In this document: piece by piece, positions 1,113-5,487 of the stretch | Position numbering within the stretch: position 1 is the stretch's first letter | Layout of the letters: each line of letters opens with the position of its first letter | Origin: a virus | Lineage: Duplodnaviria > Heunggongvirae > Uroviricota > Caudoviricetes | Length of the DNA: 5,487 nt | Strand: one strand, 5' to 3' | IMG/VR virus record: IMGVR_UViG_3300029521_000124 | The notes under the pieces: model-generated | The model's input: the letters and a program-made list of their open reading frames with translations, nothing else | The model's database searches: none | Told to the model about the DNA's origin: nothing | Program-made: the position numbers and the translations under genes

Positions 1113-1469
1113 TTAAAAAATCAGAACGCCGTGCGGCCTCAACACCCGAAAGGCTTCTTTAAATCTCTGTCGCGAATCATCACGCCAGGCATCTTTATTC
1201 AGCCGTCCATATTTCTTTCCCATCCAGGCGTTATCACCAACACTCTCAAGATGCGGAGGGTCTAATACAACCATCGAAAAAGATGCGTCTGCAAATGATA
1301 ATGCACGAAAATCTGCGATAATGTCAGGGCTGATAATCAAGCGTCTCCCATTGCGTAATGTGTATCCTTCTTTTCTGATATCGCTGAATATCGCCCGTTC
1401 GTCAGACTTATCGAACCAGAACATGCGGCTGCCACAGCACATATCAAGAATGGTTGCCGGTGCACTCAC
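1113..1469 (-). pseudogene. C-terminally truncated DNA amino-methyltransferase (N6-adenine/N4-cytosine type) fragment, 118 codons; resembles short prophage methyltransferase remnants such as K-12 YfdM
   Basis: Motif I-like LDMCCGSRMF near the N-terminus and motif IV-like VVLDPPH about 57 aa later (gamma-class order), then the ORF stops about 45 aa after DPPH with no target-recognition region. GTG start at 1469 overlaps the upstream gene's stop as GTGA. Sequence left of 1113 is AT-rich and unrelated. Confidence 0.55.
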
Positions 1470-1888
1470 TGCGCCACGTCCTGAAAATTACCCTGATAGA
1501 AAGCCAGTATGCGCTGCATAACTTCGCTCTTCCGGCACTCGCGACAGATTATGTTTAGGCGACTGTCGTAGCGACGTATTTCTCCGTCAGGTGATGACCA
1601 GATAAGGTCCGGATCAACCACAGCAGGTTTCTTCACCTTTGCCCTCGAGAGTTTTTTGCGGGCGTTTTGCCAGTCCTTACGCGCCTGTTCAGAGGGGAAT
1701 AACCCGTAGCCGGAGTTGTATACATCGCCACTGGCTACCAGCTCTCTGGCAAGAACGCTCATCAGATATCTAGTCGCACCTGTTTTAGCTTCCAGTTGCC
1801 GTAACGTCTCACGGCCGCTCTGGCGCACGAGTTCCACCACCTGCCATTTAATTTTTTCCCGCTCTTCTTGTGTAAAAACTTTTGCCAC
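1466..1888 (-). CDS. Hypothetical prophage early protein, 140 aa, unknown function
   Basis: GTG start at 1888 preceded by AAGGGGGA 4 nt upstream (minus sense); stop overlaps the methyltransferase start. No Walker A motif; a possible helix-turn-helix-like stretch (TLRQLEAKTGATRYLMSVLAREL) and a CRECRK element. Position matches the gene after the replication initiator in the CPS-53-type arrangement (from memory). Confidence 0.65.
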   Translation of the reverse strand: MAKVFTQEEREKIKWQVVELVRQSGRETLRQLEAKTGATRYLMSVLARELVASGDVYNSGYGLFPSEQARKDWQNARKKLSRAKVKKPAVVDPDLIWSSPDGEIRRYDSRLNIICRECRKSEVMQRILAFYQGNFQDVAQ

Positions 1889-1928: not shown

Positions 1929-2894
1929 TTATCCTCTGAAACCAGGCGGAATTTCTGTATCCGGTTCAGAAATATGATTAACACAACGCTGTACAGGTGA
2001 ACGTCCCAGGCGGATGACCAGTTCGTCCCATTTTTCGCGGAGCTTTGACGGGCTCATGATGTTTTTTACCCAGAATGGATCTCGCTGAACCCGACCAAAC
2101 ATTTCGCAAATTTGTCTGTGGCTTCTGCCATCCAGCATCCGCATTGTGCGCACGTCATTGGCCCAGGCAGTCCAGTTAGGCTCTTTTGGTCGCATGATCT
2201 CGCCATCATCACTGGCTGCCTGTTCGTAGAGACCCACGATCCGCCCCCAGATCCACTGCGCACACGCCAAATCCTCCCTGCTACCCCACTGGCGTTTTTT
2301 CGCACTAAACACAACCGCGTCGGAGTTCCGGGTTAAAAAATCCTGTTCAGTCGTCTGCGGGTCCGGTTGCGAAGCTTCCGGACGAAAAGTGTTTTTATTC
2401 TCTGTAGTAATCTCTGTTGTATTCTCTGTAAGATCATCAGGCCATTTTGACCCGATGACATTGGGTCGTTTTGAACCAATGGAGCGTTTCATTTTGACCT
2501 CTTCCATCGTGTCATTTTGACCTGATGGAGCGGCGCATTTTGAACCGATGGATTCGCTCAATTTGCCACCATCTAAAAGCTCGCTCCCATAGTTGATCGT
2601 GTAGAAATTGGTCATATCGCGCTTTGATTTATTGAGCTTTTCACAACGCAAAAGCCCCAGCGTTTTCAGACTTGCAAACGCGCGCTTTAACGTTGACTCT
2701 GACCAGAATGGGAACTGTTCCAGCCATTGTTCCGTTGTGTTATAAATCCAGCGAACACCATCACATTCCATGCCGGAGTTGGTATCTCTCAACCAGTAGT
2801 GCAGTTGTTGCAAAACAATGGCTTCGTTTAAGCCAATTTTCATTGCCAGCTGCGTGTTTATAACCAGTGGGCGTTCAGCAAAAAGAAGGCTCAT
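1929..2894 (-). CDS. Phage replication initiation protein (lambda O-like replisome organiser) with the origin embedded in its coding sequence
   Basis: The ORF track gives 1929-2948 with a TTG start; I prefer the ATG at 2894 (MSLLFAERPLVINTQ..., GGATGG 5 nt upstream), and an ATG at 2843 is also possible. N-terminal winged-helix-like region (LNEAIVLQQLHYWL...STLKRAFASLKTLGLL); central low-complexity linker with repeated SIGSK/IGSK peptides encoded by the iterons. Confidence 0.8.
   Translation of the reverse strand: MSLLFAERPLVINTQLAMKIGLNEAIVLQQLHYWLRDTNSGMECDGVRWIYNTTEQWLEQFPFWSESTLKRAFASLKTLGLLRCEKLNKSKRDMTNFYTINYGSELLDGGKLSESIGSKCAAPSGQNDTMEEVKMKRSIGSKRPNVIGSKWPDDLTENTTEITTENKNTFRPEASQPDPQTTEQDFLTRNSDAVVFSAKKRQWGSREDLACAQWIWGRIVGLYEQAASDDGEIMRPKEPNWTAWANDVRTMRMLDGRSHRQICEMFGRVQRDPFWVKNIMSPSKLREKWDELVIRLGRSPVQRCVNHISEPDTEIPPGFRG
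2386..2432. repeat. AT-rich segment with three TCTCTGT(A/T) repeats at exactly 12-bp spacing (2399, 2411, 2423); candidate DNA-unwinding element of the prophage origin
   Basis: Directly visible; lies immediately next to the iteron array inside the initiator gene, the same layout as lambda ori within O. Confidence 0.5.
2443..2551. repeat. Iteron array: five direct repeats of about 15 bp, consensus ATTTTGA(A/C)C(C/N)GATGG, spaced 22-25 bp (starts near 2444, 2468, 2491, 2514, 2537); candidate ori iterons bound by the initiator
   Basis: Repeats read directly from the sequence; they sit in frame inside the replication initiator gene. Confidence 0.6.
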
Positions 2895-3396
2895 AATTCC
2901 ATCCAGCTTTTTGTTGGTATTGCTGTCGATACGCAAGTTTGAAAGCAATTGCTTTTTCTATAAGTTCGTCAGTTTCACGATCCACTACGGCAGGATCAGC
3001 AAAAAGCAGTCCGGACTCCACCACATCGCCATATTCTTTGTTTAACCCGGCGATCATGCACGTGATGCTTTTTCCGTCAGTAATTTCACGATACAACCTG
3101 AAATCATTAATCCGGATAGCCTCCATAATTGCAGGCACTAGCGCCGTGAACTTTTCACGCTTATCCCTGGTGTCGATAGCCTTCCAGCGTTCAAATATCT
3201 TCACTCGATTAACGCCAAGCGCTCGCTGATCAATCGCGCCACCTTCATATGTGACACGCTGAACATCGATGTTCGGGCGCTCTTTCAAAGCCCAGAATGC
3301 TTCAGTGATTAATATCGTCGCCTGCTCCTGTGTCATTCCTGGTCGACATATCCAGGCATCCAGAGCCTCACGAGCCTGTTCAGGAGTGATTTTCAT
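2875..3396 (-). CDS. Hypothetical prophage early protein, 173 aa, between the cro-like gene and the replication initiator; possibly a CII-like/YdaT-like regulator (speculative)
   Basis: ATG at 3396 overlaps the dicC 3' end by 17 nt; its stop at 2875-2877 overlaps the preferred initiator start by 20 nt. No recognisable catalytic motif or Walker A. Function assigned only from position. Confidence 0.6.
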   Translation of the reverse strand: MKITPEQAREALDAWICRPGMTQEQATILITEAFWALKERPNIDVQRVTYEGGAIDQRALGVNRVKIFERWKAIDTRDKREKFTALVPAIMEAIRINDFRLYREITDGKSITCMIAGLNKEYGDVVESGLLFADPAVVDRETDELIEKAIAFKLAYRQQYQQKAGWNYEPSFC

Positions 3397-3610
3397 TGTT
3401 CAACCGCCCCGCCCGCTTCGTCTTACGATATTCATCATAAACTTTGGGATCATACTGAAGCTCCCCGCCAGATGCCTCCTGTAGACGCATCGCGCGACCT
3501 TCGGGAACTAAATCCCCTTTCCAGCTATAAAGCGAAGCCAAACGAATACCTGCTGCTTGTGCAAGTTTTGTTTTTGAACCGAAATACAAAAGAGCGTCAG
3601 TTTTAAGCAT
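3380..3610 (-). CDS. dicC: Cro-like HTH regulator DicC, 76 aa
   Basis: Protein MLKTDALLYFGSKTKLAQAAGIRLASLYSWKGDLVPEGRAMRLQEASGG... matches my memory of E. coli DicC. ATG at 3610 with AAGGTG 6-7 nt upstream; divergent from dicA. Confidence 0.88.
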   Translation of the reverse strand: MLKTDALLYFGSKTKLAQAAGIRLASLYSWKGDLVPEGRAMRLQEASGGELQYDPKVYDEYRKTKRAGRLNNENHS

Positions 3611-3693
3611 TTAAAACACCTTTATTGTTAGTCATAACTAACAAGATAGATGTTAACAAAAACATAGTCAATACGATTTAGCATTAGCTAACT
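3611..3693. promoter_or_regulatory. Divergent dicC/dicA promoter-operator region
   Basis: 83-bp AT-rich spacer between divergent start codons. Near-palindrome TTGTTAGTCATAACTAACAA at 3625-3644; candidate minus-strand promoter with -35 TTGACT (3671-3666) and -10 TATCTT (3648-3643) overlapping that palindrome; TTAGCTAA palindrome at 3684-3691 just before the dicA ATG, which has no obvious SD. Confidence 0.6.
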
Positions 3694-4101
3694 ATGGAAA
3701 CAAAAAATTTAACTATCGGCGAACGCATCAGGTATCGTCGGAAAAACCTCAAACACACCCAAAGGTCTCTTGCTAAAGCCCTGAAAATCTCCCATGTGTC
3801 TGTATCACAATGGGAACGGGGTGATAGTGAACCTACAGGGAAGAACCTTTTTGCCCTCAGCAAAGTATTGCAATGCTCACCAACATGGATTCTATTTGGC
3901 GATGAAGACAAGCAACCAACACCACCTGTTGAGAAGCCAGTTGCCTTATCCCCCAAAGAACTAGAGCTCCTTGAGCTGTTTAATGCACTGCCAGAATCAG
4001 AACAGGATACCCAGCTCGCCGAAATGCGAGCTCGAGTAAAAAACTTCAATAAACTCTTTGAAGAATTACTAAAAGCCCGTCAGCGGACAAATAAAAGATA
4101 A
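3694..4101 (+). CDS. dicA: XRE-family HTH repressor DicA (CI-like, no peptidase domain), 135 aa
   Basis: Protein METKNLTIGERIRYRRKNLKHTQRSLAKALKISHVSVSQWERGDSEPTGKNLFALSKVL... matches my memory of E. coli DicA; N-terminal HTH; divergent from the cro-like gene. Confidence 0.88.
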   Translation: METKNLTIGERIRYRRKNLKHTQRSLAKALKISHVSVSQWERGDSEPTGKNLFALSKVLQCSPTWILFGDEDKQPTPPVEKPVALSPKELELLELFNALPESEQDTQLAEMRARVKNFNKLFEELLKARQRTNKR

Positions 4102-4823: not shown

Positions 4824-5198
4824 ATGGAATTTAAAGATTTACCAATGCCATTCCAGGAAATGGCAGCGAATGTGGTTCGCTCTCAACTGGCGACTCTTGA
4901 CCTGAGTACCGTAGAAAAAGAAACCATCGACAATATATCCGGTAACGTACGCCGAGCCTTTATCGGGCTGTACGAAGAGAAGCAGCTCTCTGATAACCAG
5001 GATTTACATGAAAAATACTTTCTGGAATTAATGGACATCATTAATAAAGGATTTGGCTTGTTAATGAAAAAGAAAGGGATTCGAATAGCTCCCCTTGAAA
5101 ATCATTTTACAGCAAGCAGTATTAATTCCTGTGATTTAAAGCATCACACATCCGATGGGAAAGTTGAATCAAACAACAAAATATCAATTAATCATTAA
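4824..5198 (+). CDS. Hypothetical protein, 124 aa, unrecognised; last gene of the DicA-controlled plus-strand operon within the window
   Basis: ATG at 4824 with GAGG 6 nt upstream, 22 nt after the ydfC stop. No motif I recognise. The 3' third (from about 5040) is markedly AT-rich compared with the 5' part. Confidence 0.6.
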   Translation: MEFKDLPMPFQEMAANVVRSQLATLDLSTVEKETIDNISGNVRRAFIGLYEEKQLSDNQDLHEKYFLELMDIINKGFGLLMKKKGIRIAPLENHFTASSINSCDLKHHTSDGKVESNNKISINH

Positions 5199-5219
5199 TT
5201 TATTCACAGGTGAGGTAGA

Positions 5220-5487
5220 GTGCGTGCGCCGGACACGGATAAGAATCCGGCACTGACAGTTTACTGAAAGGATATTTCCATGAAAAGTCAGACCATAACG
5301 CGAAAGCGCACGGCGAGGTAGCTGGTTCATAGATAGCCTGTCGTTAAATTTTCGTCGACCGTGCGCTTCCGGTTGTGACACTCCGCGAAATGGCGCGGCG
5401 GTAAGTATGACGGGGTTATTCCTTCCCCGTTGAGGACACCGGGTTGTCAGGTTGACCATACGCTTAAGTGACAACCCCGCTGCAACG
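5220..5487. other. GC-rich, inverted-repeat-dense segment of unresolved nature (structured RNA or mobile-element end, or the 3' end of a convergent gene that starts beyond the window)
   Basis: Tandem GTGCG at 5220-5228; hairpin 5228-5233/5246-5251; perfect 10-bp inverted repeat 5304-5313/5359-5368 (45-nt loop); hairpin 5410-5415/5425-5430; perfect 9-bp inverted repeat 5441-5449/5469-5477. No plus-strand ORF; one minus-strand frame is open to the window edge. Confidence 0.3.

Follow-up and report, generated by a model that had tools for sequence, protein, structure and literature searches.

The stretch of viral DNA considered here (the window: all 5,487 nucleotides of IMG/VR record IMGVR_UViG_3300029521_000124) covers the early region of a lambdoid prophage, and it most likely contains the replication origin of that prophage. 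Judged from the sequence, positions ~2361 to 2568 would be the vegetative origin of a lambdoid prophage with dicA/dicC immunity and would lie, like the lambda origin, within the gene that encodes its initiator; we put the probability of this reading at about 0.8. The initiator gene is an open reading frame (ORF) of 321 codons plus stop (966 bp) on the minus strand at 1929..2894, annotated as the coding sequence (CDS) of "DNA replication protein O" in Escherichia phage PhiR42_1. In the direction of transcription, an array of iterons comes first, then the segment of the gene that is least stable, and last a small inverted repeat, and both this order and the orientation match those of the lambda origin. 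A preliminary description of the window had already recognized the lambda arrangement of an origin within O, and this is supported. The C-terminal half of the protein is homologous to lambda O (E=1e-26). The strand had to be corrected, as the initiator gene is on the minus strand, and the limits given then, 2386-2551, leave out the inverted repeat at 2361-2383, to the left of them, which is probably part of the element. The origin appears to be of the ordinary lambdoid kind, with an iteron family that seems undescribed and a gene that is under-annotated.

The iteron array consists of five good copies and one degenerate copy on the minus strand, spaced 24/23/23/23/23 bp or about two helical turns, and it lies inside the initiator CDS, between the regions that encode the N-terminal and C-terminal domains. 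The repeats are real and nonrandom. With up to 2 mismatches, the motif CATTTTGAMCNRATG is found four times in the window, always within 2443-2550, where 0.24 copies would be expected in the window, and none of 200 shuffled sequences reached four copies. The shorter core TTTTGAMC is present at 2445, 2469, 2492, 2515, and 2538 (spacing of 24/23/23/23 bp; 0.79 expected in the window), and Tandem Repeats Finder (TRF) reported a 23-bp array at 2469-2552. The spacing is 23 to 24 bp rather than the 22 to 25 bp described earlier. The units had also been described as direct repeats of ATTTTGA(A/C)C.GATGG; they are indeed repeated, but they are imperfect palindromes with the core GGTCA-AAA-TGACC, of which some have outer CCATC/GATGG arms, and the third copy lacks the GATGG half. 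As a description of the units, a palindromic core of 13 bp to which CCATC/GATGG arms may be added on the outside fits better than a 23-bp palindrome.

The iteron closest to the low-stability segment, iteron 5, has its core at 2440..2452 (minus strand; plus-strand sequence GGCCATTTTGACC), extends as a palindrome over 2435-2457, and encodes VIGSK. Moving away from that segment, iteron 4 (core at 2464..2476, minus strand; plus-strand sequence GGTCGTTTTGAAC) encodes SIGSK, iteron 3 (2487..2499, minus strand; TTTCATTTTGACC) is without the outer arm and encodes EEVKM in the third frame, iteron 2 (2510..2522, minus strand; TGTCATTTTGACC) encodes PSGQN in a different frame and forms the extended palindrome CCATCGTGTCATTTTGACCTGATGG at 2504-2528, and iteron 1 (2533..2545, minus strand; GCGCATTTTGAAC) again encodes SIGSK. 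Five copies had been counted previously, and these are the five good ones; a sixth was overlooked. This iteron 0 (2556..2568, minus strand; plus-strand sequence GCTCAATTTGCCA) is degenerate, with four mismatches in the core, and lies 23 bp from the next copy. In the relatives L002, L003, and L009-L013, the same slot holds a good copy, GAGGTCAAAGTGA.

As the repeats are located in a coding region, they could in principle reflect an internally duplicated, low-complexity protein linker (xIGSK, TExT), with the DNA periodicity being a by-product without function. Three of the five repeats (copies 1, 2, and 5 by ascending coordinate) do encode xIGSK, the low-stability block encodes TENTTEITTEN, and 82 of the 84 block instances that were found by a DNA pattern share one reading frame. 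However, the earlier statement that the repeats are in frame and encode SIGSK is true only for those three, as V/SIGSK. The spacing of 23 bp is not a multiple of three, and because of this the copies fall in different frames, so that the iterons are read in all three. Copies 3 and 4 keep the DNA core while they encode EEVKM and PSGQN, respectively, and this change of frame in two of the five repeats points to selection at the level of the DNA. The codons in the block also speak against a linker. Among loci selected for the similarity of their proteins and not for the DNA motif, the block had GAG as its Glu codon in 66 cases and GAA in none, whereas GAA dominates outside the block (464 GAA versus 248 GAG). 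This test is partly constrained, as units were detected at no more than 1 mismatch to CAGAGAnTAC, but it is still informative because a GAA variant would have been detected. Thr codons in the block were ACA or ACT in 137 of 142 cases, the spacing of the units was 12 bp in 40 cases and 11 bp in 2, and in 4 of 72 units the motif is preserved although the frame is shifted, so that it reads RDY. Moreover, the Bacillus plasmid pBSG3 (L171, 744-846) has three CCTACAGGGAAAGA repeats at 24/23 bp with TTACAGAGATTACTACAGAGATTACTACAGAGATT after them in a stretch that is not part of any long ORF, and the frame that is open there (LQRLLQRL) differs from the one that would encode TEITTE. We consider it very improbable that the repeats exist for the sake of the protein. 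If the segment is an origin, the repeated peptide would be a by-product of the DNA repeats, and this part of the protein would be only a linker.

Adjacent to iteron 5, at 2384..2434 on the minus strand, lies the low-stability block, a putative unwinding element based on its 12-bp period, its content of the least stable 40-mer, and its conservation. It has three 12-bp ACAGAGAnTAC units at 2396-2431 (coding strand, ACAGAGAATAC-A-ACAGAGATTAC-T-ACAGAGAAT). The exact 12-bp spacing reported in the preliminary description was found again: a repeat finder placed the units at 2396, 2408, and 2420, and TRF gave a 12-bp array of 2.7 copies at 2399-2430. The 40-mer, with 27.5% G+C, ranks first of 930 in the gene (-44.3 versus a mean of -55.1 kcal/mol). 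Distal to the block is the inverted repeat GTCCGG-N11-CCGGAC (2361..2383), at the position of the lambda inverted repeat. An inverted repeat recurs here, with other arm sequences, in proteobacterial relatives, and it is absent from the Gram-positive relatives.

The comparison with lambda supports the assignment at several levels. Lambda likewise has its origin inside the initiator gene, between the parts that encode the N- and C-terminal domains, and this gene likewise comes after cro-like and cII-like genes. The lambda iterons are also palindromic, with an A-tract center and a distance of about two helical turns (starts at 39034, 39054, 39078, and 39101, a spacing of 20/24/23 bp, followed by the AT-rich region), and the lambda iteron TCCCTC-AAAAC-GAGGGA has the same palindromic design as GGTCA-AAA-TGACC. 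The AT-rich region within lambda O, at the equivalent place, also contains the least stable 40-mer (-43.0 versus a mean of -54.7 kcal/mol). In both phages this segment is purine rich on the coding strand. In lambda it is followed by the inverted repeat GTCAGAG-N14-CTCTGAC, of which GTCCGG-N11-CCGGAC would be the counterpart here. By eye, the lambda AT-rich region resembles a degenerate block, as A[CG]AAAAGA occurs three times, at 15 and 12 bp, and in the BLASTP alignment TENTTEITTEN stands opposite the peptide encoded by that region. There are also clear differences. The iteron sequence is GGTCAAAATGACC here and TCCCTCAAAACGAGGGA in lambda, with 5 + 1 copies here compared to 4, and the putative unwinding region here is made up of regular 12-bp repeats with 27 to 35% G+C, whereas it is an A-run with 20 to 22% G+C in lambda. 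Lambda further differs in that it has a P gene and in that its O protein has no DnaT-like tail. The six-iteron origin of the Shiga toxin (Stx) phages 933W and P27 belongs with that of lambda among the closest known systems (PMC7466680).

Compared with the PHROGs profiles, the protein matches phrog_391, "replication initiation O-like" (E=1e-91). In BLASTP with the full proteins, residues 147 to 294 align with residues 135 to 270 of lambda O (E=1e-26), and the C-terminal halves alone show 38% identity (E=4e-26); the lambda-O-like C-terminal domain comprises residues 196 to 294 (2013..2309, minus strand). The N-terminal 105 residues (2580..2894, minus strand) form a putative winged-helix domain. 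The AlphaFold2 model of the N-terminal 110 residues is confident (predicted local distance difference test score, 86.3), and we infer a RepA_N/DnaD-like winged helix that is predicted to bind the iterons. The last 21 residues, VQRCVNHISEPDTEIPPGFRG (1932..1994, minus strand), resemble the extreme C terminus of Escherichia coli DnaT: in a phmmer search of the PDB chains, 16 of 21 residues were identical (E=0.013-0.044; 2ru8, 6aep, and 9zbt_D), and in both proteins the shared sequence, ending in …SEPDTEIPPGFRG, is located at the C terminus. Full-length similarity to DnaT was not found, as the PDB matches are limited to these 21 residues, and the NCBIfam DnaT profile matched at positions 160 to 179 only, with 16 bits compared to a cutoff of 201. 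Relatives with an unrelated C-terminal domain end in a similar way (…IPAGFRG and …VPAGFRS). A 2026 paper on the preprimosome gives the DnaT C-terminal tail no defined role. Among the matches listed, the gene is mostly labeled "hypothetical protein" in RefSeq E. coli genomes; the mEp460 records name it "Primosomal protein I", and a Klebsiella phage has it annotated as "transcriptional regulator". The label "Primosomal protein I" is misleading because only the tail is shared with DnaT and the rest of the protein is unrelated.

According to the preliminary description, absence of the repeats from homologous initiator genes would refute the origin; the repeats are in fact kept in such genes down to about 50% protein identity. 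The phage mEp460_4F5 and a Klebsiella phage (about 78% DNA identity) have the block as well as iterons with unchanged spacing. Both elements are also present in loci from Citrobacter, Raoultella, Enterobacter, Izhakiella, Trabulsiella, and Edwardsiella, which were chosen by protein similarity alone. Relatives from Anoxybacillus and Bacillus, with 53 to 56% identity in the N-terminal domain, have GTTCAAAATGA-like repeats at 21 to 22 bp and then the block. When 29 diverse loci were combined in an ungapped conservation profile, their differing registers diluted it too much for a clean logo, and inspection slot by slot was used instead. Contigs assigned to metagenome-assembled genomes of Veillonella parvula, Bacillota, and Collinsella contain the initiator gene at 99 to 100% identity (L006, L007, and L021). 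These are probably misbinned, E. coli-like Enterobacterales DNA, and they were left out of the evidence for host breadth.

The relatives also offer natural domain swaps. One Klebsiella phage protein has an N-terminal domain that is 73% identical, together with the same iterons, and an unrelated C-terminal domain. Conversely, lambda O has only the C-terminal domain in common and has its own iterons, and for the O protein of an Stx2 phage neither domain is common by BLASTP; its gene has GGGAAA-type repeats and yet the 40-bp block at 97.5% identity. Among 68 nonredundant loci, pairs with a common repeated 7-mer upstream of the block had a median N-domain identity of 0.73, compared to 0.21 for the remaining pairs, while the C-domain identity differed only slightly (0.13 versus 0.07). 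Among these relatives, a different type of N-terminal domain goes together with different repeats. Such swaps, with one N-terminal domain joined to different C-terminal domains and one block joined to many iteron types, could be used to dissect the coupling of origin recognition, melting, and helicase recruitment.

The block is also found well beyond this phage lineage. A 66-bp block query retrieved 88 phage records, from hosts such as Acinetobacter (21), Bacillus (14), Klebsiella (12), and Staphylococcus (9), and further from Erwinia, Providencia, Pseudomonas, Xanthomonas, and Geobacillus; in nearly all of the annotated matches listed, the block lies inside a gene that is labeled as a replication initiator, a DnaD-like protein, or a primosomal protein. 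The pattern ACAGAGANTACNACAGAGANTAC is present in at least 120 IMG/VR loci, and in nearly all of 80 of these the block is found on the coding strand in the middle of an ORF (residues 135 to 200 of 260 to 370). In the IMG/VR loci that were retrieved, it is preceded by 3 to 6 repeats with a nearly constant period of 23 bp, the core of which varies by lineage (TCAAAATG, GGGAAACC, GAGGGCAA, GACCCTCC, CAATTTGT, and others). Overall, the block consists of 2 to 5 ACAGAGAnTAC units, 11 to 12 bp apart, in phage initiator genes of Proteobacteria and Firmicutes.

The block could also be kept mainly as a patch of homology for recombination, at which modules for the origin-specific N-terminal domain and the host-specific C-terminal domain are exchanged, and not as an unwinding element. 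Homology between the window and Klebsiella phages ends where the block does on its distal side (query 468-909), the 40-bp block is all that the O genes of Stx phages have in common with the window, and many combinations of N- and C-terminal domain types flank it. However, phages of Firmicutes and those of Proteobacteria have the block in common even though their flanks have diverged to about 50% protein identity, and this weakens the explanation because exchange between such diverged phages should be rare. No other part of the gene is as unstable as the block, which is situated where lambda has its unwinding region, and in the noncoding plasmid sequence the block and iterons occur where there are no domains to swap. 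A role in recombination and a role in unwinding do not exclude each other, but recombination as the main reason for keeping the block is in our opinion improbable.

For an unwinding element, the strict conservation of the block sequence suggests that more than low stability matters. Since it is the nucleotides that are conserved, the block may be recognized either by a surface that these initiators have in common or by a conserved host factor, as for the DnaA-trios or the 13-mers bound by TrfA. One comparison is with oriV of plasmid RK2, where all of the 13-mers of the DNA unwinding element and their sequence are needed and the winged-helix protein TrfA binds one strand specifically (PMC4081077). 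The 13-mers of RK2 oriV and of oriC are likewise short repeats with a period of about one helical turn that adjoin iterons, whereas the RK2 motif, its period (13 compared to 11 to 12 here), and its initiator family are different. By analogy, the RK2 13-mers may be a model for how the ACAGAGAnTAC units work, and we would speculate that the block is bound in a strand-specific way, as TrfA does on the RK2 13-mers (PMC4081077). It is a tentative proposal, to which we give somewhat less than even odds, that the block is an instance of a sequence-specific origin-opening element that occurs in several phyla, together with 23-bp-spaced iterons of many sequences, in putative winged-helix (RepA_N/DnaD-like) initiator genes of temperate phages. 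Its hosts would then, just as tentatively, include Enterobacterales, Acinetobacter, Pseudomonas, Xanthomonas, Bacillus, Geobacillus, and Staphylococcus, with a noncoding occurrence in the Bacillus plasmid. In the literature we found no description of the ACAGAGAnTAC motif or of the present origin type, although this is not proof of absence, as subscription journals were outside the coverage. If it is true that the units are specifically recognized, they would serve to mark the origins of phages in different phyla, and they would add a new case in which origin melting depends on a specific sequence.

How such an origin might fire can be outlined from known systems. Dimers of the N-terminal domain would bind the palindromic iterons and build a complex resembling the O-some, by analogy with lambda (PMC7466680) and pSK41 (PMC5703833). 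This complex, together with transcription from a pR-like promoter upstream, could then produce the stress that opens the adjacent ACAGAGAnTAC block. Finally, the C-terminal domain and the DnaT-like tail may bring in the DnaB-DnaC helicase complex of the host, which we propose because no loader is encoded next to the initiator. The pSK41 Rep protein of a RepA_N theta plasmid is instructive here: its N-terminal domain binds four Rep boxes that lie in the middle of the rep gene itself, the part of the protein that this origin encodes serves as a linker, and its C-terminal domain contacts host replication proteins (PMC5703833). The phage initiator resembles it in its size of about 320 residues and in the repeated sites in the center of its own gene, and from the reading in three frames and the poor conservation of the protein there, its central region is probably also a linker. 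The two systems differ in that pSK41 is a Gram-positive plasmid, whereas the window comes from a phage of a Gram-negative host, in that the C-terminal domain here is lambda-O-like, and in that Pfam RepA_N was not matched. An initiator without a loader and with a DnaT-like tail hints at a way in which such phages capture the host helicase.

Several observations weigh against the origin assignment or against parts of it. In Pfam, no family was found for the initiator at E≤0.01, including Phage_rep_O and RepA_N, and Pfam and NCBIfam together gave only winged-helix matches below threshold and the DnaT tail match of 20 residues. BLASTP detected no similarity between the N-terminal domain and that of lambda O. 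There is no P, DnaC, or DnaB gene after the initiator in the window or in PhiR42_1, where the genes that follow encode a DUF977 (Ren-like) protein and then the methyltransferase, and no loader gene is present near the initiator in HannyBb, mEp460_ev081, or mEp460_4F5 either; helicase recruitment is for this reason a step that we purely infer. The pR-like promoter candidate, upstream of the cro-like gene (3643..3671, minus strand; TTGACT-17-TATCTT), was recognized by its match to the sigma-70 consensus at 9 of 12 positions, and 0.5 such sites are expected by chance; transcription from it would pass through the origin. The inverted repeat is weak when taken alone, as 4 of 100 shuffled sequences reached it. 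The link between iterons and N-terminal domain is supportive and not decisive, because the adjacency of the two in the DNA contributes to it. Finally, the prophage as a whole could be defective because the region adjoins an insertion sequence (IS)-like repeat and a truncated methyltransferase gene.

This last point leads to the possibility that the segment is an origin by descent and is now a nonworking relic in a defective prophage. The window begins with a multicopy sequence, with transposase genes just to the left in PhiR42_1, the methyltransferase is truncated, as had been noted before (the match covers only profile positions 52 to 165 of 229), and iteron 0 has degenerated compared to that of the relatives. 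Against these signs of decay stands the initiator ORF, which is intact and is 100% identical to that of PhiR42_1 (host ECOR13), a record deposited as a complete phage genome. The whole segment 1929-2948 shares this identity, and it has 98.3% DNA identity to phage HannyBb and 96.9% to mEp460_ev081. Both are phage records (HannyBb from "bird poop", with E. coli as host) in which the gene is 97 to 98% identical, and they speak for viability. The five iterons proximal to the block are well kept, and in lambda only the two proximal ones are needed in vitro (PMC7466680). Furthermore, the segment 2340-2600 is carried by 1,860 of 5,426 complete E. coli genomes, about one-third, and most of these approximately 1,860 carriers have it at ≥95% identity. 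We think it unlikely that the origin is a relic, and the earlier suggestion that the replication module is intact is plausible. With the reading of the segment as an origin, both an origin and an initiator are assigned to a prophage module that about one in three complete E. coli genomes contains.

The neighboring genes are those of a lambdoid early region. Gene calls and profile matches identify a cI-type repressor gene (3694-4101, plus strand), and small plus-strand ORFs beyond it encode YdfB and YdfC family proteins according to the PhiR42_1 annotation. On the minus strand are a P22-Cro-like gene (3380-3610), annotated as DicC in PhiR42_1, and, by profile match, a cII/YdaT-like gene (2875-3396). 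We take the repressor and the Cro-like protein to be DicA and DicC of the Qin prophage. Directly downstream of the initiator gene is the DUF977/Ren-like gene (1466-1888, minus strand), followed by the truncated DNA methyltransferase ORF (1113-1469, minus strand; phrog_954). An RNA explanation was dropped because Rfam at gathering thresholds gave no match across the whole window, including no DicF. About 1 kb of mostly noncoding-looking sequence separates the methyltransferase from the repeated sequence at positions 1-75, which is present on E. coli chromosomes and plasmids at a median of 3 places per genome and up to 41, and which is presumably the reverse complement of the IS2 left end; the PhiR42_1 transposase genes lie immediately left of the corresponding region. 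At the other end, positions 5190-5487 contain no convincing ORF, and this sequence, presumably at the position of dicF and dicB in the Qin prophage of K-12, is found in 4,314 of the 5,426 E. coli genomes, with up to 8 copies per genome.

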